DNA of 64,000 nt from an uncultured bacterium (GTDB taxonomy: Bacteria; Patescibacteriota; Gracilibacteria; Absconditabacterales; Absconditicoccaceae), in the NCBI GenBank assembly GCA_963552955.1, contig CAUVLQ010000007.1, positions 1,200 through 65,199 of the forward strand, written 5' to 3'. Both the position numbers and the translations under genes were made by a program. This document shows, one piece after another, positions 14,389 through 64,000 of the stretch (within the stretch, counting starts at the first letter, position 1; each line of letters starts with the position of its first letter). Below the pieces are notes generated by a model. That model had not been told where the DNA came from and searched no databases. It saw only the letters and a program-made list of their open reading frames with translations.

Positions 14389-14600
14389 AAATGATGAGCA
14401 TTAAGGTATAAAAATGTTCTCTTAAGTATAGTTGATTTTTTTTAAAAGTCAAAAAAGTCAGATTTTTTTTGTTTTAGAAGTTTGCTTTTTTGCTTGAAAT
14501 TTTCAGTTGCATTTAGCTGTCAAAATTTTATACTTGAGTGCAAAAATGCGGAATTTTTTCGCTGAAATCAGAATTTTATGATCTTAAATATATATAAATA

Positions 14601-28248: not shown

Positions 28249-28294
28249 ATCTATGCATTAAACAAGAAGTAAAAGTCAGATTTTTTTGTTTTTT

Positions 28295-32541: not shown

Positions 32542-32631
32542 AATTTACTAATTGTAAGATAAAAAAGTCTGATTTTTTTGTCGTTTTTACTTACGCTAGT
32601 ATAGGAGTTTGGTCGCTTATTGCAAGGACAA

Positions 32632-46569: not shown

Positions 46570-46646
46570 GGGTGATTAGCTCAGTTGGCTAGAGCATCTG
46601 CCTTACAAGCAGGGGGTCATAGGTTCGAGTCCTATATCACCCACCA
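46570..46646 (+). tRNA. tRNA-Val(UAC)
   Basis: Acceptor GGGTGAT/ATCACCC, anticodon stem TCTGC/GCAGG, loop CTTACAA. CCA encoded. Last host feature before the phage-like element. Confidence 0.9.
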
Positions 46647-46676
46647 TTTAAGACTGTTGACTTCTTAAAATAGAAG

Positions 46677-46707
46677 GTCGTACGAATTGTTTCGTGCGGC
46701 TTTTTTT
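46677..46707 (+). terminator. rho-independent terminator of the tRNA array
   Basis: 10 bp stem gtcgtacgaa / ttcgtgcggc followed by T7. Confidence 0.75.
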
Positions 46708-46851
46708 GTGTACAACGAATAGAGCTCTCCGCATAGTATTGAATCTTACCAGTGCTACACAATGCAGAGAATCTGCACCCTAAAGGTCTTATTAAATTGC
46801 ATTGTGGTGAGAGGTAGCACCTCATCGCTATGCAATCTAATAAGACTTTTT
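46708..46851 (+). other. candidate structured non-coding RNA ending in a long terminator-like hairpin
   Basis: tgtgta...tacaca enclosure. gcaga-gaa-tctgc hairpin. Then a 9+7 bp helix gtcttatta-a-attgcat ... atgcaat-c-taataagac (46786-46845) followed by T6. No credible ORF. Confidence 0.3.
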
Positions 46852-47291
46852 TCAAATTTGCAATCTCAAAGACTTTGTCGCCTCCAATAAGGAGATAAGA
46901 GAGAGCATCACAGTTAAAAGAGTTGTTAGGTTGCGACTCTTTATATCTGCTTAGGCTAATACTGATGGTTAAGTACACAATTTTCTTAGTAGTAAAAATT
47001 CTGAGTGCAGTAATGATTGTACTTTGGATCCGGTTTAATCTTTCTGTGCTCCTACTGATTGGTGTGCCTTGTATCATTAGTATTGCTTGATCAGAATGAT
47101 GGTTGCCTCAACCAAAAAAGAGGCAGAGAACTTTATTTGTTAAGAATTACCTATGCAAATAAAGTTCATGTATAGAACTGAAGATTGAGATTATATCTTC
47201 AAGTTCTCAGGAGAATATGTGGGGTGCGTATTTGTACCGCCCCACAGAGTACAGAAATTCATCAAACTTTTAGGTCAATACTTGGTATAAG

Positions 47292-48314
47292 ATGAGAAAA
47301 CTCAAGGGACAAAAAGACCTTGTGAATTACTCAGCCAAGATAGCCTTAGAGTTTGGGAATGTAGCTCGTGCAATTCTCTACTCGCAGATTATCTATCGGC
47401 GAGATATTAAGCAAAGGTCTGAATTTTATAAGACAGACAAAGAACGATCTTTAGAGTTATGATTATGATTATCAGAAATCAAATATACAAAAAAACGGCT
47501 GAAAGATAACTGATATATCATAACTCAGCATAAAAGATTAGATCATTCCACAAGTTATATTGTGGAAGAAAATCAGCTCAATACCTTATTGATAAAGCTG
47601 TATTGAGAAACTTATCAGAACAGGGAGCATTGTCAAAATTGACTATCGGTAAAGTCAGAATTGGCTATCGGTAAAGTTAAATCTGACGATAGCGAAAGTC
47701 AAAATTGACTATCGGTAAAGTCAGAATTGACGTTCGATATAAGAACAGAAACTACAACAGAGATTACAACAGAGAGTGTAGAGAGAGTAGAGCAACCTCC
47801 ACCCACACAATTTGATAAAATCGAATTTGTTGGGAAAATGAGAGATGCAGAAAAAAGAGGAAGTGTTTATCTCTCGACCTGGAACAAAATCACTGGTAGA
47901 AATGATTTCCTTACTGAGGAGATTAAAAAGAAACTTTTCAATTTTTCAAATCTGAGTTTGCAAGATTTCGCTCTCAGAGCAGAAAAATTTGAAGTTATTA
48001 AATCGCTTATTCTAGCGAAAAAAATGGAAAAATATTTCTTCAGCAGGATTCGAGAGCGAGATTTTGGACAGTTTCTAGCAAAGTTTAACGACTTTTGAGG
48101 AACTGACGAGGAAATTGTTTCCAAACTCGCAATCTTTACTGAGGTTAAGAAAGCTTTGAGAATCCTTGCTACTCCTGAAGCTTCGCCAGTCCCAGAGCAA
48201 AAACCGCTGAGCGAAGAAGAGAAACAAGAACAAAAAGCAAAGCTAGAACAAGCAAAACAGCAACTTTTATCCAAGTTATCCATTTCTTATGACAACAACA
48301 CAATTAGCCACTAG
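47292..48314 (+). CDS. phage replication initiator / replisome-organizer-like protein containing internal iterons
   Basis: ATG 47292 is in frame with ORF 47727-48098 (only TGA between them) and ends at TAG 48312-48314, overlapping the recT start. N-terminal HTH-like NYSAKIALEFGNVARAILYSQIIY. Internal DNA repeats encode QN-G-LSVKSEL twice. Confidence 0.55.
47632..47729. repeat. iteron-like repeats (candidate replication origin) inside the initiator gene
   Basis: Perfect 32 bp direct repeat gtcaaaattgactatcggtaaagtcagaattg at 47632-47663 and 47698-47729. A third ctatcggtaaagt copy at 47665-47677. Inverted repeat gctatcg/cgatagc at 47664-47670 and 47687-47693. Confidence 0.7.
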
Positions 48315-49107
48315 AGACTTCTTTCAGAGGGAAGATGTCGTGCAGAAATTCCAAGAATTGCTTGGGAAAAGAGCAAGTTCGTTTTTAACCTCAGTTTTGT
48401 CAGTAGTAAGTCAGAACGATTCGCTCGCTAAAGCAGATCCAAAAACAGTATATATGGCTGCACTTACCTCAGCTACGCTTGATTTACCTATCAATCAGAA
48501 CTTAGGTTTTGCCTATATCGTACCATACAATGGGCAAGCACAATTCCAGATGGGGTATAAGGGGTTTATCCAGCTTGCATTGAGGTCAGGACAATTCCTC
48601 ACAATCTCAGCAGCTCCAGTGTATGAGGGGCAATTGATTGAGGAGAATCCTCTTACTTGATTTGTTTTTGATTGGAAGGCAAAAAAATCTGAAGTCGTGA
48701 TTGGATATGCTTCTTATTTCAAGCTTCTAAACTGATTTGAGAAGACTTTCTACATGACCAAAGCCGAAATTGAGAAGCATGCAAACAATTATTCAGCACA
48801 ATTCAGGAAGAGCCAAAGCGGACTTTGGAAAGATAAGTTTGACGAAATGGCGACAAAGACCGTGATTAAGCTTCTGCTTTCTAAATTTGCTCCACTTTCG
48901 GTTGAGATGCAAAAAGCAGTGATTGCAGACCAGGGGGTGTTGCAAGATGAGAATTTTGATAGCGTAGAATACCCAGACAACGATCAAAATGAGATCATTT
49001 CTGTTGATCTTGATGAACAGATGAGGGGAATGACCGCTACGAATGAAGTGAATAAAAATACCGTCACTGAGGAACAATCAGAAGCCGAAAAATCAAAATC
49101 ATTTTAA
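48289..49107 (+). CDS. recT: RecT-family single-strand annealing recombinase
   Basis: SFLTSVLSVVSQN, LDLPINQNLGFAYIVPY, FQMGYKGFIQLALRSGQ, IGYASYFKL, KTVIKLLLSKFAP. Two ORFs joined by TGA. Confidence 0.85.
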
Positions 49108-49126
49108 CCTTTAAGCACTAAAAATC

Positions 49127-50032
49127 ATGTGATACGTTGAAGATAACAGAGGCTACATTACCGCCTCGAAAATTAAGCTCTTCATGAAATCAAAGGAAGC
49201 TTATAAAAAAGTTTATGTAGATGAGGTAGATACCTCGTTTATCAAAGAATCTAAGAGCCTAGAGAATGGAACAATCGTTGATAGCTATATTCTCACTCCT
49301 CAGCAATTTGTTCAAGATTATGCAATCCTTGAGGGGACAAAAAAAGATGATCTTATCAGACAGTGCCTTGAACAGAATATCCCTGTAGAGAAATCTGATA
49401 AGGTTGATGATCTCAAGGCAAAACTCGTAGGGAATAAGCAAGTTTTGACTGATGGAGAAGTTGATATGGTGAAAGGCATTGAAGCTGAACTCAAGAGACA
49501 ACCACTCTTTGATTTCTTCGGAAGAACTGAGAATCAAAAAGAAATCATCGTTGAATACAAAGGCTTCAAACTCAAGGCAAAGATGGACCGCTTAGATCTT
49601 GAGAACAAAAAAATCAGAGACCTCAAGACAAGTAAAGATATTGAATACCGCCCAATGATTGATATGTCGCAGATGGAGTATAGCTTAATCAATTCAGACG
49701 AGTATCAGTATGGATTCCAGCTCTCATTCTATGCAGTCTTGTGTTATATTCAGTATTGAGAGTGGTTTGATGGAATTTTGGATTGTGTAAAGACGAGTGG
49801 AAACTATGCTTACGAGGCTTATTTTTACCACAAAGATACCCTCAAAAGAATTGCCAGCTCAATACTTTTCCCAGCTCTTGATGCGTTGATTACTTGCCAT
49901 CAGAAGAATAATTTTGAAGACTCTGAGGAAAGAAATTCTAGAGGGGAACTATTGAATGAGAGATACTATCCAATTCTGGACTCAGCAATCCAAAAGGACT
50001 TTAGAATCATAGAACCAGCTTTTATTTGCTAA
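49127..50032 (+). CDS. PD-(D/E)xK exonuclease (phage recombination exonuclease)
   Basis: Directly follows recT. KAKMDRLD ... IRDLKTSK forms a D...D/ExK motif. ATG 49127 is in frame with ORFs 49184-49759 and 49778-50032. Confidence 0.65.
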
Positions 50033-50044
50033 TTTTACAAGAAA

Positions 50045-51370
50045 ATGAGCCAAAAAATTGAATATATTGCTGTAAAAAACTTCAAGTGAATAAAAGAACT
50101 TGAAGTCAGCAACCTTTCTCGCTTCGTAGCTGTTTTCGGAAAAAACGGAGCTGGGAAAACCAGCTTTATCGAAGCCATCAAGTCAGCAATCAAAGCTGAT
50201 AAGTGAGTCAATTCTAAGGTTAGAATTGGAGAGGCGAAAGGCGAGATTGAGGTTAAATTTGAAGATTTCGTGATTAAGAGGATTGTTTGAGAGAATGGGA
50301 AACTTATTGTAGAGCATAATGGAGAACTCGTAGCTAAACCTCAAGCTTGGTTAGACTGAGTTTTTAAGGGGACGATTGGTGATCCGCAGAAGTTTATCAA
50401 CCTCCACAACAAGGAGAAAATCAAATATCTCCTTGAGACGCAAGGTAAAAAGCTCGAGTATGATGCTTTAGAAAAGCAAAGAGAAGTAAAATTTGAGGAG
50501 AGAACTAATCTTCATAGAACCTACCTCGCAAAAAAAGAAGAGGTAGATAAAACTGATACTTCTGCTTTTGAAGTCCTCGAGAATGCTATGGTTGATCCTA
50601 CCGCTCTCCAGAATCAACTTAAAGAAGCCGAGACCCACAACTCAGGTTGGCATGAACTCAAGGCAAGAGTAGAGAAGTGAGAAACGGTAATTGATCAGAC
50701 CAATTCGGAGATTAAGGCGATGATTGATGGTATTGAGAGCATAGATCGTCAGATCGAAATGCTCCAAAAAAAGAAAGCAGAAGCAGAAAAAAATCTGACT
50801 ACAAAGCAAGAGTTCCTTGATAACGCTTCTTGTCAATTGGCTGATTTGAGAGACAAATACGAGAATTTTGACAAGATTGATACAACCGAAATTCTTGCTC
50901 AGCTTGAAGCTCACAATCAATCGCTTGCAAAAAATGCAGAGATTAAAGCCAAAAAAGAGCTTTATACTCAGCAAGTGCAGGCGAGGAATGATTTACAGGC
51001 TCAGTGGAAAGAGCTTGATAATATGGTCAAGGAGATCGAACAAAAACAGAATGATCTCATCAAAGACCTTAATTTGAGCTATCAGCTCAAGTTGGAAGAG
51101 GGGATCATGTATGTATTTGTCCATGATAGCCGAATCCCACTTGATGAACTCAATACTGCTCAGCAGTTAGAAATCGGCGTTGATATTTGCCTCTCTTGAC
51201 CTAATGAGATCAAAATCATCACAATAGAGAATGCTAATGCTCTTGACCCCAATACTCTTGAGAGAGTAAGGGAAAAGATAGAATCCAACCAAGCACAATG
51301 CTTCTTAGAGACGGTATATAGCACAGGGTATGATGAGATAACTATTGAGGATTGAGAACTCAAGAACTAA
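50045..51370 (+). CDS. SMC/SbcC/RecF-like AAA ATPase with central coiled coil
   Basis: N-terminus IEYIAVKNFK-G-IKELEV...VAVFGKNGAGKTSFIEAI (Walker A). Long coiled coil. C-terminal ITIENANALD (Walker B-like). Confidence 0.7.
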
Positions 51371-51501
51371 TTCAGAATTTTATTCTTATTCAAAAGAATG
51401 ACCCACTGAATGATTATAACCTTAGTATTCTTGGTTATTTACATATATCTCATTCGGAAAATTCTCGATGAGAAGTAAAATTTTATTTATTATGTATTGA
51501 A

Positions 51502-52623
51502 ATGAAACTAAGCATAAAAAGAAAGGAGCTCCTCACTATGTTAGAGTTCGCAAAAAGATTTATTGAAAAACAATGAACATTGCCAGTCCTCAAGAATGTC
51601 TGTCTTAGAGCTAGTGAAGAGTGACTGAGATTGAGGACATCAGATATGGAGAAAGATTTTTCTGCTATTCTCAGAGAGGCAAAAGTCTCTGAAGAATGAG
51701 CGATTACGGTCAATGTAAACCAGCTCTACAACCTTCTCAAGAAAGACAAGAGTTATATGCTCCAACTAAGCAATAACGATGATGGTCTCGTAGTCCAATG
51801 AGACGAGCTCAAAAGCGTCCTCTATGGTATCCCTGCTGGAGAATATATCGCAGAGATTGATAGACCTGACTGTACGATCTCTTGTAGCACTTCACTACTC
51901 TTGGAGGCTATAGAGAAAGTGAGCTATGTGATCACGGAGAAAAGTTTCTCGCCTGTTCTTACAGGAATGTTGATCAAGCAAATAGATAACCTTGTGCATT
52001 TCGTTGGAACAGATAGTTTTAGGCTCGTGAGATATACCGCAAAAGCTGATCTTGGAGAGATTGAGGCAATTGTTCCAGTAGATGCACTCAAAGCCATAGC
52101 TCCTATTCTAAAATATGCGATCAGCATTGGAGCTACAAAAATAATGCTTTGAATAGATTATCAGAAGCTTTCAATCAGTATCTCAGGGGGAGATCAGGAG
52201 ATTGTAGTCACTACATTGCTGATTCAAGGGAATTATCCTAACTATGATAGAGAGGAGATTATTCCTACTAGTTATAGTGGATATATGACTGTTGATAGAC
52301 AAGAATTTTTGCAGAAATTACCTCAGATTATGGCTCTTACAACACCTTATCTCAACTATCCAGTAAAGCTTGAGGTAACGGATAATCAGCTTACACTATC
52401 AAGTGGAAAGACAGACAATGGAGAGCTGAATGCTACCTTATCTTGTCATTGTTTTGGACGGGTTGGGAACTTTTCAGTCAATGGTAGATACCTACTAGAC
52501 TTTATAAAAAATGACTCTTCTCCTCAGATTAAAATTGAGATAGTAGGAGGCGAAAAGCCGATCAGAATAACAGGTATGAATGACAATAATGTAGAGTATA
52601 TTGTCAGACCGCTTGTAAACTAA
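51502..52623 (+). CDS. DNA polymerase III beta sliding clamp-like protein (phage-encoded)
   Basis: 373 aa. LPVLKNVCLRA, SFSPVLTGMLI, FVGTDSFRL, LIQGNYPNY, FSVNGRYLLDF follow the DnaN domain pattern. Three frame-consistent ORF pieces. Confidence 0.8.
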
Positions 52624-52729
52624 TCTTGATCTATCAGGGCAACTCACCTAGCAGTTATGAAGTTCTGCTGGGTAAGATGCCCTTGATGGGCGGTATTAAA
52701 CTTTATTTTTATTTCTTATTTGTATTGAG

Positions 52730-52930
52730 ATGGAAACTTTTGAGACAAAAGAGATTCATGAGGATGATATTCCATACACTAGTGGTTGGGGATATGACTT
52801 ATTTGAATGAGGGTATTTAAAACCTGAGAATATTCTAAAGAACCAAGAGGATATTGATGAAGTCAATAATGCGATAAAGGTTCTTGAAAAATACAAGGCT
52901 ATATGGGATAAAAACAATTGGTATTTATAA
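52730..52930 (+). CDS. small hypothetical phage protein (66 aa)
   Basis: ATG 52730. One TGA. Acidic. Ends at TAA 52928-52930, just before the hairpin tctcccc/ggggaga. Confidence 0.35.
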
Positions 52931-52958
52931 TCAGCTTTCTCCCCTGATGGGGAGATAT

Positions 52959-53066
52959 GCAGAGGTGGCGGAATAGGTAGACGCTTTTGGGTAACGCATA
53001 ACTACAAGGGGAGATAGTGCCTGAGGAATCAGCCCCTATGCGAGGTGCAAATCCTCGCCCTCTGCT
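52959..53066 (+). ncRNA. aberrant 108-nt tRNA-like gene (Leu-type D-arm, oversized central region)
   Basis: Perfect acceptor GCAGAGG/CCTCTGC. D-arm GCGGAATAGGTAGACGC (Leu-like). T-arm (G)CGAGG-TGCAAAT-CCTCG(C). 56 nt in between do not fold into a normal anticodon arm plus variable arm. Confidence 0.5.
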
Positions 53067-53129
53067 CAATTTTGATTTCTACTTTTGTAGATTTGTATTA
53101 TTTTTACCTAGTCCTTTTAGACTAGGTGT

Positions 53130-53187
53130 GCAACAGTAGCTCATTGGTAGGGCGCTAGAGGTGTTGGTTCGATTCCAACCTGTTGCA
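53130..53187 (+). ncRNA. 58-nt tRNA-like gene lacking an anticodon arm
   Basis: Acceptor GCAACAG/CTGTTGC. D-arm GCTC-ATTGGTA-GGGC. T-arm GTTGG-TTCGATT-CCAAC. Only 9 nt (GCTAGAGGT) lie where the anticodon arm and variable loop should be. Confidence 0.5.
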
Positions 53188-53340
53188 ATTGATGATCGAC
53201 ACTAGTGTTATGTGGCGTGCACACTACATAATACTAAGGTTGTTCATTTTCGGAGGGGACGCCCTCCTGTATACAGAGGACGGCTAAGCCAAGAGAGCGA
53301 GTAAGCTCTCCCTCTGGAGATTTTAGATGAAAGTATCAGA

Positions 53341-53832
53341 ATGAAAAAAATACTAGACGTCTGCTGTGGTGGCCGCACCTTTCGGCGAGATAAGAATAAT
53401 CCACTAGCTGAGTATATGGACATAAGAAGAGAAGAAGCCTGATTTATCACTGCGAGACCTAACTTTGTTGTGGATCCAGACTTTGTGGCCGACTTCCGTG
53501 CTATCCCAAGACCCGACAATTCTTATAAGCTCGTAGTATTTGACCCTCCGCATTTAATTCATGCAGGAGAAAAATCTTGGCTGAAAGGTAAGTATGGTAA
53601 GCTTACCAAGGAGAGCTGGCCAGCCGATCTTAAGCAGTGATTCAGAGAGTGTATGAGAGTATTAGAGCCGTATGGAACTCTCGTATTCAAGTGGAACGAG
53701 AATCAAGTTAAGCTCCATGAAGTCCTCAGGGCTATAGACTATACTCCACTCTTCGGAACGAGGAGCGGTAGGAATGGAACGACAATACGACTAGTTTTTA
53801 TGAAGATACCAAAAGAAGAATGCAACCAATAA
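53341..53832 (+). CDS. small SAM-dependent DNA methyltransferase (DPPH motif)
   Basis: ILDVCCGG (motif I), LVVFDPPH (motif IV, DPPY-type). One TGA. Segment TF-CGG-CGA-DKNNP. GC-richer than its surroundings. Confidence 0.7.
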
Positions 53833-54839
53833 CAGTTCTCTCCCTCTTCGATGGGATGAGTTGTGGTAGATTAGCTCTAGAGAGAGCTGGAATACCTGTT
53901 GAGAATTATTGGGCTTGTGAGATTGATAAATATGCAGCCCAAGTAAGTCGTAATAATCGAGATGATGTGTTCCACCTATGAGACGTGAGCGATCTCAGCT
54001 GATGGGACTTCTCAGAGGATGTCTGTTGAGAACCAATTGATCTTCTCATCGGAGGAAGTCCTTGCCAGTGATTCAGCAATGCAGGTAAAGGGCTGAATTT
54101 TGAGGATTCTCGCTCAAAACTCTTCTTTGAGTTTGTTCGCATTCTTAATGAGGCGAAGCCGAGATGTTTCCTATTGGAGAATGTAAAAATGAAGAAGGAA
54201 TGGCAGAATATCATCTCAGAGAATCTATTCTGAATACAGCCAGTGGAGATTGATTCTGCTCTCGTCTCAGCTCAAAGGAGAAAAAGACTCTATCGAGTAG
54301 GGAAAAGGAATGAAGACTGATCATATTCTCAGGTTGTAGTTAATCAGCCAGAAGATAAAGGGATTTTGCTTAAAGATATTCTAGAGGACAAAGTTGAGGA
54401 ATCGTACTATATCAACCAAGAAAAAGTCCAGAATACGGATACTAAGCAGTCAAACTTTCTTAAGAAAATTTTGTTCAATATAAACCCTAGTGGTAAAGGT
54501 ATGAATGGCAATGTTTATAATCCTGAGCATAAAAGCCCAACGCTTACTACGAACAAAGGAGAATGAATTAAAATAATTCAGCTTCCTAGAGGCAAGAATA
54601 TCTGAGGGATTATAGACAGAAAAACACCTACTTTGTCAGCGAATTTGTGGCAACATAACAATCTACTACAGGAATGATACAGAGTAAGGAGACTCACGCC
54701 GATAGAATGCGAGAGGTTGCAGACATTGCCTGATGATTATACCACAGGAGTCAGCAACTCTCAGCGTTATAAGATGCTAGGGAATGGATGGACGATTGAT
54801 ATAATTGCCCATATCTTTAGGGAGATGTTCCACGATTAG
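53820..54839 (+). CDS. dcm: DNA (cytosine-5)-methyltransferase
   Basis: LSLFDGMSCG (I), GGSPCQ-G-FS (IV), LLENV (VI), QRRKR (VIII), TPIECERLQTLPDDYT, GNGWTI (X). Overlaps the upstream gene by 13 nt. Confidence 0.9.
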
Positions 54840-54922
54840 CTTTTCGGTATTACCGAAAAGGTCAGAGATGTACGAGAATTTCGTACAGCTGAAATCAGAT
54901 TTATTTATTATTATTTTTACAA

Positions 54923-55192
54923 ATGACAAGAGAAGAGAAGTTAGAAGCCATATACGATGAAATTGATAGAACTATTGTATTTTTTAATCAGTTTTGAGGT
55001 ATAGAATTTGATTGAGAATGAGATGATTATACATTCCTCCCAATTGTGATTGGTGATATTATGGAATACTTCAAAAATTCACGATGATATGTTGACTGTA
55101 TTATTGGGCTTTGGAATGATTACGCAAATCCCCTATATCTACAATCAGATGAGTGTATAGACTATGTTTATTCACTGATACCGAAATCATAA
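54923..55192 (+). CDS. hypothetical phage protein
   Basis: 89 codons, four TGA, frame checked to TAA 55190-55192. Confidence 0.4.
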
Positions 55193-55225
55193 GTCAGATT
55201 TTTTATCTTTTTTTTACGAAAGCAG

Positions 55226-55501
55226 ATGAATATAGAAGTAAAAACTCTCCCAAATGGACTAAGATACATACCAATGACAATGGTTGAAGCAATGAAAATT
55301 TTTTGATGATTGTGAATTTGTGATAATTGTAATTCAGGGAATTTTGGAAAATGAAACGCTTATATACCAGTTCTTAATAAATGGTATTGTAAAAAATGCT
55401 TTGAAGGATGGAAAAAAAGAGCAAAATTTTATCCTGATGATGTCAAATTTGAGGAAAACAACATTCAGTATGTCATTTCTGTAACTCAAAATAAATCTTA
55501 G
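55226..55501 (+). CDS. hypothetical phage protein with CxxC...CxxC (zinc-ribbon-like)
   Basis: ICDNCNSGN...WYCKKCFEG. 91 codons to TAG 55499-55501. Confidence 0.4.
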
Positions 55502-55550
55502 AGTAAACAAAAACGATAAATCAGAATTTTATTTCTTTATTAACTATAAG

Positions 55551-55943
55551 ATGAATGAAAATTTATTACAAAAACTAACTGAGGTAGGAGATAAGATTGT
55601 CACAGCTATTCAAACAGGACTCGACCAAGCGCCAGCGTATATTCAAGACTTAGCTCATAGGCGAGTATCTTTACAGTTATGGAAGAAATCTGTATCCTTG
55701 TTTATTTTGTTTGTTATATTCTGTCTTATTATATGGCGAGCCGTATACCTAATCAAGGCAGGAAGAGAAGAAAAGTGTGACTACGGAGACCCATCTGGAT
55801 ATTATGTAGGGGCATTCTTTGTTTTATTGATTCCTGGTACTATTCTTCTTATTTGTATCTATAGTGACATCTCTACTATCCTTTGATATTCTATGGTCCC
55901 AGAACTATATATTCTGCAGGATATTAAGCAGTTCTTGCAGTAG
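55551..55943 (+). CDS. hypothetical phage membrane protein (two TM helices)
   Basis: ORF 55551-55886 extended through TGA to TAG 55941-55943. TM helices SVSLFILFVIFCLII and VGAFFVLLIPGTILLICIY. Confidence 0.45.
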
Positions 55944-55975
55944 ATGATTTATTTTATCCTTTATGTAATTTAACA

Positions 55976-56344
55976 ATGCAAGAACTAGAAACCTTACTTA
56001 ACTCTCTTATACAGAGAGGGTGGAAACCGTTTAACTACATTTGAACAACTGAGAAAATAGAGGTAGGCGATAATTTTGAGATTGCTATAGTCTTTATAAC
56101 TTGAGAATTCTCCTATCATACCCTCCGTGATTTGGTAGTTCTCGAGAGCTGATTCTGGCAGTTTATATGTAGGAACAAACTATATAAAAATAACAAAGAA
56201 AAATTTTGGCAGAACGTGTCTAAGGTATCAGTCAATATCTGATGGTTTCCTCGTAATTATGAATACCGACTCCTAGAATCAGCACTGATTCCTGAGGAGG
56301 AACTGGGACAGTTTTTAGTTGATAATATTAAAATACAATGATAG
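55976..56344 (+). CDS. hypothetical phage protein
   Basis: 122 codons, five TGA, frame checked to TAG 56342-56344. Confidence 0.4.
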
Positions 56345-56479
56345 CAAACCAAATACTATGAACATTTGTATGAGTTACATTATGCTTATTTATGTATTCA
56401 CTAGCAACAGAAGATAGGGCTTGAATATTTGCAACTACAATTGCCTTGGTTGTACTTATAATTACTTACATTATTGTCA

Positions 56480-56695
56480 ATGGCAATGGAGGAATTTAAG
56501 GTATGAGATAAGGTAAGATACACTCAAGACTACCTCGATCAGCGAGAGCTTGTAGTTGGGATACCCTATCCGTTTCAGGATACCTATACCATCAAGGAGC
56601 AGCTTACAGCAATCTCCTACTTGGCAGACTGAGAGAAGCCTGAGCATAGGGGGAGAATAGTCCATCCTCGAGGGATGGAGAAAATAGAAGAATAA
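56480..56695 (+). CDS. hypothetical phage protein
   Basis: 71 codons, two TGA, two CGA, frame checked to TAA 56693-56695. Confidence 0.35.
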
Positions 56696-56726
56696 TTCTG
56701 ACTTTTATTTACTTTCTATACTTAGA

Positions 56727-56954
56727 ATGAAATTAAGAATTGTCCAACTTCCCACTGGAGAATACGAAGTTCAGAAATTCTATGATAACAAAAAAGATTC
56801 TCCTTATTGGGCTCACTACTACCATAAAGAACCTTGATGACCTTTCCCGATGCCTGACCCAAATCAATCAAGATTTTTTACTCTAAAAGCAGCAGAAGCG
56901 TTTATTAAAATGCTTTTAGAAAAACTGAAGATTGTAAAGGAATTTGAAATTTAA
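56727..56954 (+). CDS. hypothetical phage protein
   Basis: 75 codons, MKLRIVQLPTGEYEVQKFYD..., two adjacent TGA (KEP-GG-PFP). Confidence 0.4.
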
Positions 56955-57080
56955 AAAATCTGATTTGTCGCCTTCAAGTATCTAAAAACTCTTAAGGGTT
57001 GACTTTCTAAAAGATAAGAGTATAAGAAAACCACTATATTGATTTTCCAGTGGTTTTTTATTTTTATTTTCAAAATACTC

Positions 57081-58112
57081 ATGAAAAGATTTCTAACACT
57101 CCTTCTTGTAGGGATTTTTAGCTTTGGGATGCTTAGCTTTGCTCAGACCCCAGTAGAGCAAAAGGCTGACGAGTTAAGAGCTGTTGTAAAACTCATACTT
57201 AATCAATCAAAAGATAAACAAAAAGATACTCAATTCGTAAAAGCTCTTTTTGCATGATGCGAACAAACTTGCTCTGATTCTACAATTAAAGAAGCGGCAA
57301 AACTTATAAATACTACCTTTGATAAGGATTTTTGACTTACAGCTACTGAGGCAAAAAATCAGACTTATAAACTTATTGAGGTTGTGGATTGAGACACTGT
57401 AAAAATCGAGAAAGATGGACAAGTAGTATCTGTTCGTATGATTGGGCTTGATGCTCCAGAAAGCACAACTATGAGATATGGTCATATGGAGTGTTTTGGT
57501 AAAGAAGCAGCAGCTCATCTTACTCAGCTCCTAAGTTGAGTTTCTCAGGTTGAACTAGAGGTTGATCCTACTCAGACAGCAACTGACAAGTACTGAAGGC
57601 TTCTTGGGTATGTAATAGCAAACGGAGTAAATCTGAATCAGAAGATGATTGAAGATGGATATGGATTTGAATACACCTACAATCTCCCTTATAAATATCA
57701 ATCTGAATTTAAATCTGCTCAAAAAATAGCTTCAGAAAAGAAATTTGGACTTTGGGCTGATGTAGCATGTAAAGGCGAAAGAAAAGCTATTGAAGAGGAA
57801 TCTAAAAAAGAGACTGAAAAACCATGAAGCTCTGAAGATAACATTTCAAAAGAGGAATATTTTTCATACAAAACATACTACACTTGACCAAAATGAGGTT
57901 GCTATTATTGGAATGGAAATGATAAAGTTTATGTAGATAGGAGTTACTGTTGAAGAAGCACAAGTACTACGACAAGTTCCTCATATAATTATTCATCTAG
58001 CTCCTCATACAGCTCTTACTCAGATTCTTCATCAGGGAGAATTTGCTATACTGGACCAAGAGGAGGACGCTATTACTATAATAGTAAAGGGAAAAAAGTT
58101 TATGGGTGCTAA
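57081..58112 (+). CDS. secreted thermonuclease (SNase-like) with C-terminal Ser-rich linker and two YTGP(K/R)GG repeats
   Basis: Signal peptide MKRFLTLLLVGIFSFGMLSFA. SNase motifs VVD-G-DTVKI, VRMIGLDAPES, DKY-G-RLLGYV, EDGYG. C-terminal YT-G-PK-G-GCYYWNGNDKVY and CYTGPRGGRYYYNSKGKKVYGC. Confidence 0.85.
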
Positions 58113-58123
58113 GTAAATTCAAT

Positions 58124-58163
58124 AAAAAAAGAAGTCGGATACCAGACTTCTTTTTCTTTTTTT
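58124..58163. terminator. bidirectional terminator between the + and - strand modules of the element
   Basis: A-run, then stem gaagtc/gacttc with an 8-nt loop, then a long T-run. Confidence 0.75.
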
Positions 58164-58171
58164 ATTCAACT

Positions 58172-60121
58172 TTATTCAATCAATGGAATCATATCGCATC
58201 TACAGTTTGGATGGAGAGGACTACCAATCACATTTTCATAATCTAGTCTTAATCTTCCTCAGTTATTACCACTCATAATAGATCATTGTTTGAAAAACTC
58301 CTCTTGCAGTCAGATTTTCTTTCAGTGCATCTTACCGCAATACTCACAAACCCTCTCATCTATTGCTGTTCGCCACTGTTTAGATTTAACAACTCAAGAC
58401 TGCTCTCGTGCTGATTGCTCAGCATAAGTCCCAAATCTGATTGCCTCCGTTCTGACGATGGTTTCTAACCTGCGACCTTGGAGTTCATCAAAGACTTTTA
58501 TGAGCTCTTGCTTGATCTCTTCAGGTTGCATATTTCCAGCAAGCCCCATCTCTACGACCTTTCCGATTTTCTCATCAGTTATTGTATCAACATTTTTTGC
58601 GATGAGCTGGATTTTTTGCTTCAGTTCTTTTTTGATTTTGTCTGTATTAAGATTGAACTCAATATCTACATTTAATTCGCTCATTGCTCTTACTCATTCC
58701 TCACTAATAAGCGTCTCCAATTCTGGTCTAAGATAAATATGATAGAGAGCATAGTATTTGAGTAAAAGTTGATAATCATATTTTTTGAATCCTTTTTTAT
58801 GCTCTTGCTCAAATTTTTTCAATATATCTTGCTTTTGCTTTTCAAAAATTTTCATAAATCAGACTTTTAGTCTTTTTTCGTATTCATCATTTTTTTTCTG
58901 TTTTTGTATCCATCTTTTCTGCATCCATTCTTCAGATCGCTTAATATTCTCCTTTACAATCGTCTGAAAATCTACCGATTTCATACTTATTCAGATGCTT
59001 TCTTTTTGTACTTCTTGTACTATTTCTGCATCTGTTCCGTCCACAAAGACATCTCCTCATTTGATAGGCTTATATCAAAGTTCTTGCCTGTACTCATTTC
59101 TTGTTATTCATCCTGCAAAATAATGATTCCTGATTTCCTCCTCGTCGGTTGGCAATACATTCACAAATTCAAAATTTCCGATCCCTTGGAATAACTGGTC
59201 ATTGAATACACGAGCAATCTTTTTCGCTAACGGCTCAATGCAACGAGATGCAAAAACCTGATTGAAAGCTTTTACGTTACCAACATTTACTCCTTCTCCG
59301 ATACCCAAAACTGCTTTTGGGACTTTATAAATTGCGAGAATTTTATCTCTATCTCGAGATTGCTGAGCAATAAATTCCATCTCCTTTGGTGAAGATTGGA
59401 GATTTGCTGGTTTGATACCAAATGGTAAAATTGCCAGCTTTCCAGCATTATCAGCTCAACTATGACGAGCTTCTCGGGAACTTCTAACTTTTTCTATTTG
59501 CTCCTTACTCATTGCCTGTTCTGTTGTGAGTATCATACCTGGAGGAGTGTCATGATTAAGGAGTGCGTAATTCCATTTTTCAATCTCTTTTTCCCCCCTG
59601 ATTGTCATTGCAATCGCTTGAATCGGACTATAACCTCTTGTGATATACGGATACCTTTGACTAGGATTAAACTCAGCAAAGACCATAACTTCTTCCGGTT
59701 GGAGGATGATTTTATTACTTCACTCTCGATAAATCCAATTTTTTAAGTATCAGTTACTATCTATTTGAGGGCTGATATTCCATGGCAAAAGCATACTCAA
59801 ACCAAGCACTTTTCTGTTATTCATCACCTTCCAAACATAAGCAGTTCCCGTCATCTTCATAAAGATTGCAATATTTTGCAAAAGCTCAGGAGTGATAAAG
59901 TCTGAATATTCGTGCTTAATCTCTTTATCTTGTTTGTCTGCAATTCTCCAATTTAAGCCTGAAAGACTATCGGAAATTGCTGTAATTGCTGCATATTGCC
60001 AACCGACGAAAAAATTTACATACTCATGATTCTTAATTGCTTTGTCTCAACCAAAACCTCAAAAAAGGGTTAAAAAACCTGTTTCAGATTTCTTAAAAAT
60101 ATTTTTTAGTCGAGCAAACAT
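58172..60121 (-). CDS. phage portal protein (HK97 family) fused to a Mu-F/SPP1-gp7-like head morphogenesis domain
   Basis: I translated 58685-59110 codon by codon with no TAA/TAG. ORFs 59456-59686, 59108-59380 and 58394-58684 are one 649 aa frame from ATG 60121. Portal-like IAQQSRDRDKILAIYKVPKAVLG. C-terminal RRLETIVRTEAIRF ... ERVCEYCG ... PLHPNCRCD. Confidence 0.75.
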
Positions 60122-60125
60122 TTTT

Positions 60126-60536
60126 TTACATTGAAAGAATAAAATCAGTATGGATTGCCAGTAAAACAATTGCATGGAGTGTTGGTCCACTTTCAGTCTC
60201 TACACTCTGAATATCTCAACCGACCGCATCAATTTTTAATGCCAATCAGTCTAAATCTGAACGATCAAATCTTTCTATTACTTCATCCAAAATGTCACAA
60301 AGATTCAACTCTGATTCCCTATTTCCAAGAGTTGTTGTCTCTTGAAAAATATTGATCTGGAAAAAATATTGTCTCTGATGATGGTTGCTATCCAGATTCT
60401 GGCTTTCCACTCTATCAAAATTAAAAAAGATTGACGGAAACCCTCCGAATTTTTTTGGTATCCCATCAAAAATTCCTGCAACTCATTCAATCTTTTGTAA
60501 TTCTAAAAGAATTTTTGCTCTCAATTCGTTTATCAT
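60126..60536 (-). CDS. phage head-tail joining / neck protein (DUF3168-like)
   Basis: 136 codons. Start overlaps the upstream stop (ATGATAA). The position after the gp10-like gene and its size fit neck/tail-terminator proteins. Weak motif support. Confidence 0.4.
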
Positions 60537-60979
60537 GAGAATCTATTATTGGCTAAAGTATCAATAATTTCTGAAAACCTCTTTTGGATCCTACTTTGAG
60601 AATTTTCCAGAGCCCTAGTAAAAAATGGATTTGCCTTAGTTCAAGGATGTCTGACTGATTTGACAGGGTGGTTTGCACCGTTCCAAAAAAGTCCTTTTTT
60701 CTCCTTTGGTTTAATGAGATGAGTCTTTGTTCCCTCATGGACATAGAGAGCATAAGCGATATTATTATAAATCATAGCATAGTCTGTATAGACTTTACTT
60801 CTGATATATTTTCTCAGTATTCATTTATCTACAGGGGCCTCCTTTTTTGCCTCTCACTCAATGAATATTGCAGATTCTTTAAGCCACTTTTCTCTTGCAT
60901 TTTTTAAATCAAGTTCTCCAAAAGTCTGAAGTTTTTTTGCTACTTCTTCAGCTCAAACAATTTTTAGTGTTATATTCAT
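60530..60979 (-). CDS. HK97 gp10-family head-tail connector protein
   Basis: EAPVDK-G-ILRKYI ... YALYVHEGT ... ANPFFTRAL matches the gp10 family pattern (ap.dtG.Lr.si ... Ya..vE.Gt ... a.pFl). Confidence 0.65.
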
Positions 60980-61269
60980 TTCTCCAAAATTACTGTTGTT
61001 AAAGCCAAGTTTCAGCCTCTCCTCTGTGCGACTCCTTGCACAGAATATTCTTGTCCATCAATTACGATAGTATCGGATTCTCTAACATCTACCCAAGCAG
61101 TAATGCTCAGCTTATACATTTTCCCAAATTTCCCAGCTTCCATCAAGCGGGAGTTCTCACTTACTGCGGTCAGGTAGGCAGGATGTGTAGCAATGGTTTG
61201 TTTCTCTCTCGCTATCTTCCCCTCATAGACAAGCCTTTTTACCTCAGCGTTGCAATTAAATAACATCAA
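60970..61269 (-). CDS. phage head-tail adaptor (head closure) protein
   Basis: ORF 61012-61269 extended through TGA to TAA 60970-60972. Size and position between the gp6-like and gp10-like genes. SDTIVIDGQEYSVQGV motif. Confidence 0.5.
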
Positions 61270-61576
61270 TAACTCTATATCTATCTAAAAGCACTTTTAC
61301 TGCATTTGGCACTTCTTCATTACTGAATGTGATTGAATAATCACTTAATCTTTCCGAACTAATACCGAGTTTTTGTGTCGCTTTAATCTTTACGAGATCA
61401 ATTACTGCAAAAAAGATATCTTGAGGAATTTTATCAGCTTTATCTAAGGAATAGTCTTGGAAAGTGTAGGAATTAACAAATGCAAAAGCTGACTGAACTA
61501 AAAGTTCAATCGTTGCTTTGTCTCGTCCACCTCCCAAGACCGTAATACAATTTTGTATCAACTGCTCCTTATTCAT
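61256..61576 (-). CDS. phage gp6-like head-tail connector protein
   Basis: About 106 aa helical protein directly downstream of the capsid block. Start ATG 61576 overlaps the upstream TAA. Confidence 0.45.
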   Translation of the reverse strand: MNKEQLIQNCITVLGGGRDKATIELLVQSAFAFVNSYTFQDYSLDKADKIPQDIFFAVIDLVKIKATQKLGISSERLSDYSITFSNEEVPNAVKVLLDRYRVIDVI

Positions 61577-61778
61577 CCTTAGTTTCTGCATCTTCAGAAG
61601 TTAAAGCCTTATTCTTTGCTTTTTTAACAGTCTTAGTTTCTGCATCTTCAGAAGTTTCCTCTTCTTCAATGAGTTTAACATATTCCTCTCCATAGCTTTC
61701 AGCGACTTCTTGTTCAAGTTCTACAACTTCTCCAGCCACTTTACCATCAATTCTACCTTTAATTACTTCGTATTTCAT
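61569..61778 (-). CDS. small acidic phage protein with internal 24-bp repeat
   Basis: MKYEVIKGRIDGKVAGEVVELEQE... The C-terminal TSEDAETK duplication corresponds to the direct DNA repeat cttagtttctgcatcttcagaagt (two copies, about 61578-61601 and 61633-61656). Confidence 0.45.
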   Translation of the reverse strand: MKYEVIKGRIDGKVAGEVVELEQEVAESYGEEYVKLIEEEETSEDAETKTVKKAKNKALTSEDAETKDE

Positions 61779-61848
61779 GATATTTCTTATATTAAGAATA
61801 AAAAAGAAGGGAGAAATCAGAATTTTATACCTCATTCTCCCAAAAAGA

Positions 61849-62997
61849 CTAAGCGTGAGTCTTGATTACAGCGAACGCTTCATCAGCAAGAGAAATTCCG
61901 CATACTCTAGCAGATCCCTTGATTGATTGAATATCTTTCTCCCACTCTCCAGACTTATATCCAACTTCAAAGCTGAGTCCCTTTCTGATTCCAAGAGCAA
62001 AATGCTTCAATGCTCCAAATGCGATGAATGGAGTATTAACTGCGATTGATCCACTAGGCATCACATCTGTCAGCTTTACAGGATATCCGAGCAAGAATCC
62101 TCTTTCTCCGTTATCAAGTGTTCTATAAAGAGGTCTACCATCACTATCTTTAAGCTTCTCAATAATAGCAATTGCATCTTGGCTAAGGTACCAAGCAGGC
62201 TTTGCATTCTCCTTATACTTAAGAGGAACTTTTCTCACTGCATCAATCAAGTTGTCTGCTGTTAATGTTGCAGCATTACCAGTAGTCGTGATCACATTTA
62301 CATTTTGGAGATTACAAATTCCTTTGATTTTAGAATTTCCACTAGCTGTTCCAGTCAATACTTCTTTATCCAAGAAAGCAGCAAAAGCTTCAGCAAATTC
62401 TTCTTGAGCCTTATTCCAAATCTCATCTGCTTCTGCACTATCAGCAATGAGTTCATAGGTTGCTGAGAGAATTGCACCGATCTTTTTAGCTGTCAATTCT
62501 TTTCTCTCGTAGTCCATTTTAGTATCTTGGTATGCACCAGCTTCATCTACATAGAATACTTTGAGTCCTGTTTTTCTGAGAATAAAGTATTTTGTGTTAG
62601 AGTTCATTTTAGAGATATTACAATCTTTCCAGATTCCGTAGTTTTCCATAAATCTCAATACTCCTTTTTCAAACTCAGGATGAACAAGATATCCACCATC
62701 TCCATCAGTGCCAGTATTCATTGCCTTCATTACTGAATCATCTCCACTTCTGAGAGCAACTAATGCACCAATAAAGTCTTTTTTGGTCTGCTCAAGATTT
62801 TCTTCAGCATTACCAAATTTTGACTTTTCTACCAAGGTTTTAATCTGTTCCTTGATTTCTTTGATGTCAGTATTTTCTGACAAGTTTAATTCTTTGAGTT
62901 TTGCATCTACTGCCGCTTCTACTGCAGCAGGAACTGAATCCTCTAAAGATTTTGCCAACACTTCAGCGATTTGTTTCATTTGTGCTTCGTTCAACAT
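61849..62997 (-). CDS. HK97-family major capsid protein
   Basis: 382 aa uninterrupted ORF. N-terminal helical delta-like region, DGDGGYLVHPEF, and the typical length and position after the protease. Contains no TGA codon at all. Confidence 0.85.
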   Translation of the reverse strand: MLNEAQMKQIAEVLAKSLEDSVPAAVEAAVDAKLKELNLSENTDIKEIKEQIKTLVEKSKFGNAEENLEQTKKDFIGALVALRSGDDSVMKAMNTGTDGDGGYLVHPEFEKGVLRFMENYGIWKDCNISKMNSNTKYFILRKTGLKVFYVDEAGAYQDTKMDYERKELTAKKIGAILSATYELIADSAEADEIWNKAQEEFAEAFAAFLDKEVLTGTASGNSKIKGICNLQNVNVITTTGNAATLTADNLIDAVRKVPLKYKENAKPAWYLSQDAIAIIEKLKDSDGRPLYRTLDNGERGFLLGYPVKLTDVMPSGSIAVNTPFIAFGALKHFALGIRKGLSFEVGYKSGEWEKDIQSIKGSARVCGISLADEAFAVIKTHA

Positions 62998-63032
62998 GTT
63001 TTTTTACAAAATAAGAATAAAAATCAGATTTT

Positions 63033-63764
63033 TTAGCCTCTTACGGCTTTTTTGAACATTGAAATCCCCTCGTTAGCGGCTTTTGCAATGTTCTGTAGGG
63101 TTTCTTTTGCGATGTAATTTGCCTCGTCTGCCCCTTTGCTCTTTCCATCGAGCAAAGCTTTCAGAAGATTCTTTACCTCAGCTACTTCCCCCAATATCTC
63201 AGCTTTAAAAGCTTCTAATTCAGGTATTTCTTCCTGTAAGATTCCAGCCTCGATCCCCTTTTTCATAAGCTGTTTTTGATCAAGACTAAGAGCATTCGGA
63301 TTGCATGGAACTGCCACAAATGAGAGCTCCAAGAGTTCTGCACTTGTGATAATTCTGCGATTGTCCTCTTGTCTCTGCTTAGGTATAAAACCTACAGAAA
63401 CCGTTTTTACCATCCCTTCATCATAGAGATCAGCCAACAATACTCCGAGTGGATTGCTCTTACTGAATACTCATTCAATAATCAATTTTCCATCTTCTAC
63501 TCAAATTTTTGTAGCTTTACCTACGATATTTTCTATTTGATAATCGTGATTTGCGATTATGACAGGATTTTTCATATAATTTTCCCAGTCCCATCCAGCA
63601 ACTTTGATTACTTCTCAGCTTCTATCAGTATCCTCAGTCGAAGCGACAACTCTGAATTTTCTATCAGAATTTTCCTCTTTTATTTCAAGAGAAGCAATCT
63701 GATCCTTGATTGATTTTGCCTGTTCCTCACTAATAGAGAGGAACTTTGCTTGCAATTCATTCAT
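63033..63764 (-). CDS. HK97-family prohead protease (S78/U35) with C-terminal helical (scaffold-like) tail
   Basis: VVASTEDTDRS-G-EVI, NPVIIANHD, VSVGFIP. ATG 63764 is in frame with ORF 63033-63440 through TGA. Confidence 0.8.
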
Positions 63765-63787
63765 TTTTTGATAGCCAGAATATAAAA

Positions 63788-64000
63788 TTAGTAGTTCTTT
63801 TGAGTATTTTTAAGTAAGATTTCAATTGCCTTTCTGGTCTTTACATCGTAATGACCTTTGAATTTGACTGATTGCTTGGTAAAGTCATCTACCGTATATG
63901 CAGGTGTCCAGTCTGTAATCTGAATCTTACTCAAATCGAGTTGGAAAGTATTGTTGTGACTCGCATTGATAGGATGCTTTGTGTCTTCAGCCAGCATTCT
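63788..64000 (-). CDS. hypothetical phage protein, possibly 5'-truncated by the window edge
   Basis: ORF 63788-63997. The frame stays open to position 64000. Confidence 0.35.
   Translation of the reverse strand, partial: RMLAEDTKHPINASHNNTFQLDLSKIQITDWTPAYTVDDFTKQSVKFKGHYDVKTRKAIEILLKNTQKNY

Follow-up and report, generated by a model that had tools for sequence, protein, structure and literature searches.

Attachment site, gene content and genetic code of a probable temperate phage in the tRNA-Val(TAC) gene of an Absconditicoccaceae genome

Does the DNA that follows the tRNA array of this genome belong to an integrated phage, by what route did it enter the chromosome, and which genetic code do its genes obey? 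These questions are raised by a 64,000-nt stretch of contig CAUVLQ010000007.1 (assembly GCA_963552955.1, positions 1,200 to 65,199, forward strand), hereafter the window, in which an initial annotation had described a phage-like element next to tRNA-Val. That description stands in so far as the element is an integrated phage; it needs correction in that positions 46,604-64,000 very probably comprise the left attachment site (attL) and the left half of a complete tailed temperate phage, about 33-37 kb in length, inserted by a tyrosine recombinase within the 3' part of tRNA-Val(TAC) rather than merely beside it.

A polymorphic attachment site in tRNA-Val(TAC)

Three features define the left junction:

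46570..46646, + strand: tRNA-Val(TAC), which carries attL (ARAGORN; Rfam tRNA 72.1 bits; identical in empty-site contigs)
46604..46648, + strand: attachment (att) core of 45 nt, TACAAGCAGGGGGTCATAGGTTCGAGTCCTATATCACCCACCATT, from the anticodon to the tRNA-Val 3' end plus TT
46649..47291, no strand assigned: non-coding phage left arm of about 645 nt, shared with the prophages of contigs L011, L020 and L012 at the same site

The comparison with related genomes lacking the insert, which the initial annotation had proposed, was made possible by an exact look-up of the host S20 protein, which led to ten large host contigs. In six of these (L013-L017, L019) the site is empty: tRNA-Val is followed by a spacer of 32-44 nt, tRNA-Met(CAT), a terminator and the gene of a 527-aa RNA uracil-methyltransferase, the last lying either immediately next or behind a small island of 1.5-2.5 kb. 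A metagenome scan with the methyltransferase returned 64 loci, most of them empty where the site was in range, and contributed at least 13 additional empty alleles. Similarity between the window and the empty site stops at 46,648, 2 nt past tRNA-Val, and the window, L011, L020 and L012 all depart from the empty site at this identical base and continue as phage DNA. The first 300 nt of that DNA are common to the window, L011 and L020, and the replication modules of L011 and L020 differ. The phage separates tRNA-Val from tRNA-Met(CAT), and the window therefore contains no tRNA-Met(CAT).

The reciprocal junction was recovered from other lysogens at the same site. On L029, phage DNA and a tyrosine integrase gene are followed by TACAAGCAGGGGGTCATAGGTTCGAGTCCTATATCACCCACCATT, the host spacer and tRNA-Met(CAT); the same 45 nt stand after phage DNA, as the right attachment site (attR), in L029 and L092-L097, and look-ups of the integrase and of five exact variants disclosed identical geometry in more than 25 further assemblies. 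In more than 25 related lysogens, none of which has late genes of the window type, a distance of 130 nt separates the gene of this 323-aa integrase from attR, behind which come once more the host spacer, then tRNA-Met(CAT) and the gene of the methyltransferase. The integrase and direct repeat that the initial annotation had asked for thus exist in related lysogens at this site, and its observation that neither is visible in the window was accurate: no second copy of the 45-nt core, or of its last 12 nt, occurs within the window, and tblastn with three related integrases and one terminase produced no match between 46.6 and 64 kb.

Because of the empty alleles, the shared left junction and the attR repeat with its integrase in relatives, the locus is recognised as an attachment site that is polymorphic and belongs to the classical anticodon-to-3'-end tRNA type; the window holds its attL. 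The insertion is confirmed as real and polymorphic, and a block conserved in all relatives and devoid of att repeats is not what the relatives display. The insertion target is the 3' 43 nt of tRNA-Val, and the crossover region begins at the anticodon.

The same junctions bear on whether the arrangement could be a chimera of assembly or binning, in which a free phage contig was fused to a host contig through the tRNA-like sequence. The 43-45-nt core of this phage family, identical to tRNA sequence, could indeed mislead an assembler, and a related contig, L091, shows an odd composite junction; the identical host-phage junction of the window nevertheless recurs in three other independent assemblies, derived from different samples and different assemblers, the reciprocal junction recurs in more than 25, and the two together reproduce the exact attL/attR geometry of integration, so that a chimera can be given almost no credence.

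For integration itself, a route can be proposed from the att geometry described above and from what is generally known of tyrosine integrases. Once the phage is circular, a phage attachment site (attP) containing the 45-nt core would come after the integrase gene, with an expected junction of ...GGGACA, core, TTTAAGACTGTTGAC...; the integrase would recombine this core with the same sequence in the chromosomal tRNA-Val gene. Since the phage-borne core restores tRNA-Val, the host would retain a working gene, and tRNA-Met(CAT) would be displaced by about 33 kb from the array. Pattern searches of IMG/VR for attP, using the tRNA-Val core, a 26-mer of the left arm or the T arm of a tRNA-like element described below (element B), gave zero matches.

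The neighbourhood is an integration hot spot. tRNA-Met(CAT) is a further attachment site, used by a separate integrase of 329 aa, and on L018 a related phage is inserted one tRNA later, behind tRNA-Met(CAT); non-phage islands with HATPase_c_3, DUF4365 and DUF4145 genes occupy the interval between tRNA-Met and the methyltransferase gene. The composite junction of L091 (3344-4243) reads, in order, integrase, tRNA-Val core, TTAATTATGTT, the tRNA-Met(CAT) core from its exact anticodon and a left arm of the tRNA-Met-type phage, the remaining spacer and the tRNA-Met 5' half (55 nt) being absent; it could represent a composite attP or a rearranged tandem lysogen.

Gene content and continuation beyond the window

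The initial annotation had gene content turn to phage functions immediately after the tRNA array, and this is borne out on both sides of the junction. With TGA read as a sense codon, the coverage of long open reading frames (ORFs), summed over both strands, rises about threefold, from 36.5 kb under code 11 to 108 kb under code 25, in a window of 35-40% G+C. The first 46.6 kb, under code 25, are cellular by gene content: positions 1-46,500 encode GatB, RNase Y, LysRS, methionine aminopeptidase (MetAP), dUTPase, thymidylate kinase (Tmk) and exonuclease III, together with ABC-F, S20, phosphoglycerate mutase, a type I restriction-modification system and pilins, and an array of nine tRNA genes ends with tRNA-Val(TAC) (46570-46646, ARAGORN). 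From 47,292 to the window end, the recognisable genes are exclusively those of tailed phages:

47292..48314, + strand: replication initiation protein, lambda O-like (phrog_9773, 69.1 bits with CGA/CGG read as Trp, 59.7 as Arg)
48289..49107, + strand: RecT single-strand annealing protein (PF03837, E = 4.6e-48)
49127..50032, + strand: PD-(D/E)XK exonuclease, partner of RecT (PF12684, PF12705)
50045..51370, + strand: SMC/RecF-like AAA ATPase (PF13175, PF02463)
51502..52623, + strand: DNA polymerase III beta sliding clamp (PF00712, PF02767, PF02768)
53341..53832, + strand: DNA methyltransferase (phrog_954, 234.4 bits as Trp, 217.2 as Arg)
53820..54839, + strand: C5 cytosine DNA methyltransferase, Dcm (PF00145, E = 2.2e-52; alignment to M.HhaI; phrog_116)
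54923-55192, 55226-55501, 55551-55943, 55976-56344, 56480-56695 and 56727-56954, + strand: six small early genes (code 25 ORFs)
57081..58112, + strand: staphylococcal-type nuclease, SNase (PF00565; alignment to SNase structures)
58172..60121, - strand: portal fused to a Mu F-like head morphogenesis domain (PF04860, PF04233)
60126..61835, - strand: five connector or small head genes (phrog_5, phrog_1161), among them the next two
60530-60979, - strand: Neck1/tail-completion gene
61256-61591, - strand: head-tail adaptor
61849..62997, - strand: HK97-fold major capsid protein (PF05065, E = 5.7e-38)
63033..63764, - strand: prohead protease, S78 family (PF04586, assigned to an identical product of L001-L010; DTDRS-g-EVI motif)
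63788..64000, - strand: major tail/tube protein, C-terminal part, truncated where the window stops (corresponds to the 321-aa Phage_tube_2 gene on contigs L006 and L001)

A rightward early block and a leftward late block converge at about 58.1 kb, and all ORFs of the window are intact under the host code. Equivalents of the small early genes (54923..56954) are called in L007, with matches to phrog_22392 and phrog_23747; close homologs of the portal number 85 and distant ones more than 4,000. The nuclease gene stands alone between the early and late operons; given a hydrophobic, signal-like N-terminal segment and a Ser/Tyr/Gly-rich C-terminal tail with a weak match to the PBCV basic adaptor, its product looks secreted and the gene resembles one of lysogenic conversion.

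The right boundary lies outside the window, as had been supposed, and late genes continue past 64,000 on contigs that are 97-99.98% identical. Exact-protein look-ups, for which TGA-free genes (capsid, S20) and database homologs were used, found the capsid protein unchanged in 31 blocks of the collection; five contigs match the right end of the window at 99.9% or more, and head genes of the window type occur at 99.9% identity in at least five independent samples, with relatives on phage-only contigs of 26-38 kb. A scan of GTDB genomes with the capsid returned only a relative of 83-85%. One of the overlapping contigs, L006, is 99.98% identical to positions 59670-64000 and runs 9 kb past base 64,000; in the order of transcription it adds a 637-aa tape-measure-like protein, a 273-aa Dit-like protein, a 328-aa tail protein, a 612-aa fibre, holin-like genes, a 380-aa lysin and the tube gene, behind which stand the protease and capsid genes of the window; by function, the stretch takes in an endolysin, holins and a receptor-binding protein. 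A second contig, L056, is 97% identical to the start of L006 and reaches 6.3 kb further, through a 447-aa candidate large terminase, a DNA methyltransferase, a NinG-like gene and a 329-aa integrase to an att site. The terminase candidate has no Pfam hit and was assigned by its position beside the GP3_package small subunit in L001; in L056 it adjoins a tape-measure gene with 97% identity to the late operon as continued past the window. The layout of L056 predicts a prophage of about 33 kb, and three related IMG/VR contigs, found through a copy of the tRNA-shaped element A (see below), measure 34-38 kb; from these a total length of about 33-37 kb is inferred for the phage in the window.

By analogy with these relatives, the early operon would read away from attL and the late operon from the integrase end toward the middle, so placed that its start (NinG-like gene, methyltransferase, terminase, tape measure, tail and lysis genes), the integrase and attR of this copy would all lie beyond the window, and this copy would presumably still be able to excise. 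The element is thus to be described as the left half of a full temperate phage and not as something vaguely phage-like.

Several observations count against this assignment. The att site of L056 is the 3' half of the neighbouring tRNA-Met(CAT) and not that of tRNA-Val. No contig was found that joins late genes of the window type to an integrase of the tRNA-Val type, and for the window itself the right end was not recovered: look-ups of six integrase-cluster members (P0354, P0422, P0423, P0426, P0428, P0430) never showed late genes of the window type behind them (BLAST for six loci, called gene sets for the rest). The same integrase is instead backed by at least four other late-gene sets, namely those with an SU10-type portal, those of the Phage_capsid_4 type, those with GP3_package and a 451-aa gene, and those of the Terminase_2 type. 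Neither an attP junction nor an excision product of this phage was seen, and no gene of the cI/cro repressor type was recognised in the phage part.

These gaps invite the suggestion that the block is a defective or domesticated remnant, cryptic or resembling a gene-transfer agent, that truly lacks an integrase and cannot excise. Such a reading would accommodate 17.4 kb seen without integrase, excisionase, repressor or terminase, a right end of this copy that was never captured, and a tRNA slot filled by a tRNA-like sequence without an anticodon arm, which resembles decay. It fits poorly with ORFs that are every one intact under the host code, with a site that is polymorphic among near-identical host strains, with head genes that are 99.9% identical across several samples and have relatives on phage-only contigs of 26-38 kb, and with overlapping contigs that continue into complete tail, lysis and terminase modules. 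A remnant is accordingly judged unlikely, and integration of a complete temperate phage is the preferred explanation.

The occurrence of the tRNA-Val-type integrase behind several late-gene sets marks the phage family as highly mosaic, with integration, replication and morphogenesis modules combined independently. As a separate observation, one integrase cluster (P0354, members at least 90% identical) and a single attR serve at least five unrelated late-gene sets (L109-L132, L091-L097, L029). Replication modules reassort as well, with RecT, ERF or Sipho_Gp157 and with O-like or DUF6291 initiators. Even the head genes have moved: phages of the window type have tube, protease, capsid, connectors and portal behind the lysis genes, at the end of the late operon, and in L001, L002 and L021 the head block lies between terminase and tape measure, so a head module of about 7 kb is translocated between phages that are otherwise 90% identical (58172-64000 against L001:7878-14570 and L056:7849-13679). 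Another integrase, P0357, comes from a separate prophage that occupies another site. Near the L001-type integrase (319 aa) there is no core resembling that of tRNA-Val, from which it follows that the L001 phage type integrates elsewhere.

Lambdoid and HK97-like temperate siphoviruses integrate into tRNA genes by means of a tyrosine integrase, with a core that extends from the anticodon loop to the 3' end. The phage of the window, taken together with the contigs that overlap its right end, shares with them an HK97-fold capsid and S78 protease, portal, connectors, tube, tape measure, an O-like initiator, RecT with its exonuclease and NinG, as well as a predicted integrase beside attP and a 45-nt core that starts at the anticodon and restores the tRNA. 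It differs in its gene order (terminase, tail and lysis genes, tube, protease, capsid, connectors, and the portal last), in the fusion of portal and MuF domain, in having a structured non-coding arm in the place where cI/cro-type genes, none of which was recognised, would be expected, and in three code reassignments. Among 50,697 deposited phage genomes the best capsid identity is 28%, and no nucleotide match was obtained.

As regards the host, the NCBI annotation of a close portal homolog names a Candidatus Absconditicoccaceae metagenome-assembled genome, and for one member of the integrase cluster the source given is 'candidate division SR1 bacterium'. The samples behind some related contigs bear a Human Microbiome Project label; these samples and the other source cohorts are assumed to be human oral.

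A genetic code shared with the host

The initial annotation had reported in-frame TGA at conserved glycines, a CGA/CGG pattern in the phage genes and, on that basis, an element adapted to a host with two or three reassigned codons. All three glycine motifs it quoted are present (STEDTDRS-g-EVIK in the protease, SPCQ-g-FS in Dcm and VVD-g-DTVK in the nuclease), and alignment to solved SNase structures agrees, placing TGA codons on the G of AIDGDTVK and of DKYGR. The phage genes further contain 22 CGA and 4 CGG codons at positions of the Trp type. The number of reassigned codons can now be given as three.

To read the meaning of these codons, the window was compared with related loci and codon exchanges were counted site by site. 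TGA varies at 38 of 83 covered phage sites, and GGN accounts for 43 of the 48 alternative codons; since TGA exchanges with GGN and never acts as a stop, the phage genes are not tied to the standard code. TGG varies at 20 of 45 sites, with 11 changes to CGA and 5 to CGG, and CGA at 10 of 20 (6 TGG, 2 CGG, 2 CAA, 1 AGA, 1 CGT); conversely, a change to CGA was seen at none of the 107 phage AGA sites. In host genes, CGA is replaced by CGG at 5 sites and TGG by CGG at 2.

Distant homologs were brought in through a full HMMER search with a close homolog of the portal, from which 121 sequences with normal Trp content were taken as standard-code. G prevails in eight portal TGA columns (66-116 sequences each), and four of the seven CGA columns hold W, F, Y or L with at most 8% R. 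Profile scores point the same way. With CGA/CGG translated as Trp rather than Arg, PHROG scores rise from 217.2 to 234.4 bits for the methyltransferase (phrog_954), from 59.7 to 69.1 for the initiator, from 265.2 to 276.6 for Dcm (phrog_116) and from 259.5 to 271.3 for the portal, a gain of 9-17 bits in four phage protein families; TGA as Gly rather than Trp gains 4.8-23.8 bits, the portal scoring 271.3 against 247.5.

Two features of the portal run counter to this decoding. Its other three CGA columns are variable and polar, and distant homologs mostly have R, K or N there; and TGA at residue 338 (59107-59109) falls in a W/Y/I/F column of 119 standard-code homologs. For the latter, a closer relative, P0026, has G in a translation made with TGA as Trp (code 4) and must therefore have a GGN codon at that position, so that residue 338 is probably a lineage-specific Gly and not a case of ambiguous decoding. 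The variable columns bear on the proposal that the phage shares only TGA=Gly with its host, CGA and CGG being ordinary rare Arg codons or ambiguous. Besides these three of seven positions, the proposal can appeal to the two CGA sites that become AGA or CGT in relatives and to public translations that show Arg at the aligned positions. Set against them are 22 site-level exchanges between TGG and CGA/CGG in close relatives, compared with the 2 that involve Arg codons, the preference for Trp in four independent protein families, the four aromatic portal columns among the 121 homologs, a usage equal to that of the host, in which CGA of GpmA aligns with W, and a reassignment already published for the whole clade (PMC8629427); an Arg reading is thus highly improbable. 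Codon exchanges, alignments and profile scores together confirm, at the level of sequence, that the phage genes use TGA as Gly and CGA and CGG as Trp, three reassigned codons that are all shared with the host.

Usage is host-like throughout. Per 1000 codons, host and phage have 17.2 and 17.7 TGA, 3.7 and 4.3 CGA, and 0.7 and 0.8 CGG, respectively; TGA makes up 29% of host Gly codons, with 30% for the early and 23% for the late genes of the phage, and CGA/CGG make up 34%, 40% and 29% of Trp-type codons in the same three sets. The 23 phage stop codons are TAA (18) and TAG (5), never TGA. In the host gene GpmA, all three CGA codons align to W or Y of solved structures. That every code change of the host is used at host-like frequency argues for long residence in this lineage. 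The capsid gene (61849-62997) departs from the general pattern, none of its 28 Gly codons being TGA, for an expected share of about 29%, and none of its 4 Trp codons being CGA or CGG; the two genes transcribed after it (61256-61835, - strand) are likewise without TGA, which suggests that the most highly expressed genes avoid reassigned codons.

None of the ten tRNAs called by ARAGORN has a UCA anticodon, tRNA-Gly(UCA) and release factor 2 not being expected within this 64-kb window, and no tRNA with UCG or CCG was called in it. As no functional tRNA was seen in the phage DNA, translation depends on the host apparatus, and every phage gene would need the host tRNA-Gly(UCA) and a Trp-type tRNA for CGA/CGG. 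The use of TGA as Gly and CGA/CGG as Trp, together with stops restricted to TAA and TAG, implies that correct expression is possible only in hosts with the triple reassignment. A hard barrier results: the phage of the window is not expressible in standard-code bacteria, and standard-code phages that are rich in CGA/CGG or end genes with TGA would be mistranslated in this host. Public translations are affected as well. Those of portal relatives (P0001-P0085) read TGA as Trp in ENA/Logan (code 4) and as Gly at NCBI (code 25), and both have Arg aligned to the CGA/CGG of the window, so that about 2-3% of residues per protein, conserved Gly and Trp positions included, are wrong.

Part of this picture was already available. 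Fifteen Absconditabacteria prophages with dense in-frame TGA, compatible only with code 25, were described by Liu, Jaffe, Chen, Bor & Banfield (2023, mBio; PMC10746230); that study took the code from coding density and TGA counts only, the word CGA is absent from it, and the sections consulted mention no att site or integration target. The host group, the recognition by portal, tail, terminase and integrase genes and the dense in-frame TGA of those prophages agree with the present case, which differs by a defined insertion site and att core, by documented empty alleles and by the extension of two sense-codon reassignments to the phage. CGA and CGG as Trp, besides UGA as Gly, were predicted for Absconditabacteria by Shulgina & Eddy (2021, eLife; PMC8629427), who also showed phages mirroring the AGG=Met of recoded Bacilli hosts; the passages located in that article analyse no Absconditabacteria phage. 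As described there, the Bacilli phages likewise use a reassigned sense codon of the host without a cognate tRNA, relying on host tRNAs; the evidence differs, consisting there of Codetta predictions and here of codon-exchange counts among near-identical phage genomes and of profile scores. A full-text literature search found no paper reporting CGA/CGG as Trp in a phage of SR1/Absconditabacteria. With code-25 SR1 prophages and the host change of CGA/CGG to Trp both published (PMC10746230, PMC8629427), the use of these codons by the phage is a modest and expected extension. A locus with a known chromosomal attachment site (attB), with empty and filled alleles and with an abundant human-associated host nonetheless offers a usable system for the interplay of genetic code and virus.

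Left arm, tRNA-shaped elements and a host motif

The non-coding left arm contains a hairpin followed by a T7 run at about 46678-46713, which was read from the sequence and is not called by a consensus terminator scan, and a conserved structured stretch at 46706-46950, in which several helices show compensatory changes among three phage variants, including multi-base pairs such as GCTA..TAGC, TTCG..CGAA and ACTA..TAGT. No Rfam match was obtained for the arm. With integrase/attP on one side and the replication gene on the other, the structured stretch occupies the expected place of a repressor switch. A minus-strand ORF at 46589-47077 was rejected as a gene; it overlaps the tRNA, and in L011 a gap of 32 nt interrupts it.

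Two further elements in the early region have the shape of tRNAs:

52958..53068, + strand: element A, with acceptor, D and T arms and a variable insert in place of the anticodon arm (read from the sequence)
53130..53187, + strand: element B, tRNA-like, 58 nt, without an anticodon arm (Rfam tRNA 50.8 bits)

The frame of element A (a 7-bp acceptor stem, a type-II-like D arm and a T arm) is nearly invariant among nine related phages, in which the insert takes three unrelated forms of about 55, 105 or 115 nt; L018 has one compensatory change in the D stem, and neither ARAGORN nor any Rfam family calls the element. In element B, 13 anticodon-arm positions of the Rfam model are deleted; it escapes ARAGORN and has the same form in L004, L007 and L012. 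Elsewhere its slot holds an intact tRNA-Asn(GTT) (L018) or a tRNA(CAT) (L107), or is empty (L108, L011). The intron-containing tRNAs that ARAGORN proposed at 52.9-53.3 kb, tRNA-Val(aac) and tRNA-Met(cat) with 'introns' of 100-157 nt, were set aside as artefacts that join halves of the two elements.

Element B may be a phage tRNA in decay or else a working mimic of a tRNA. That elements A and B are both functional RNAs, and not decayed tRNA genes, is a tentative and rather doubtful reading; in that case they might act as decoys or sponges for host factors that bind or cleave tRNAs or, alternatively, as handles for processing or aminoacylation, in a phage wholly dependent on the translation system of a recoded host, and together with the covarying left arm they would point to RNA-based control in SR1 phages.

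The host intergenic motif ATCWGAHTTT, which the initial annotation had the phage genes carry, does precede two of them (55551 and the capsid gene, 61849-62997), and the claim holds for few phage genes only. It occurs at 48 sites in the window, where 5.3 are expected (about ninefold), often as the palindrome AAAATCWGATTTT; examples are found at 14567-14576, 28272-28281, 32564-32573, 55520-55529 and 63020-63032. Three host genes and the two phage genes have it on their coding strand, 31-34 nt upstream of the ATG, a placement that makes it probably a start signal of the host, for transcription or translation.

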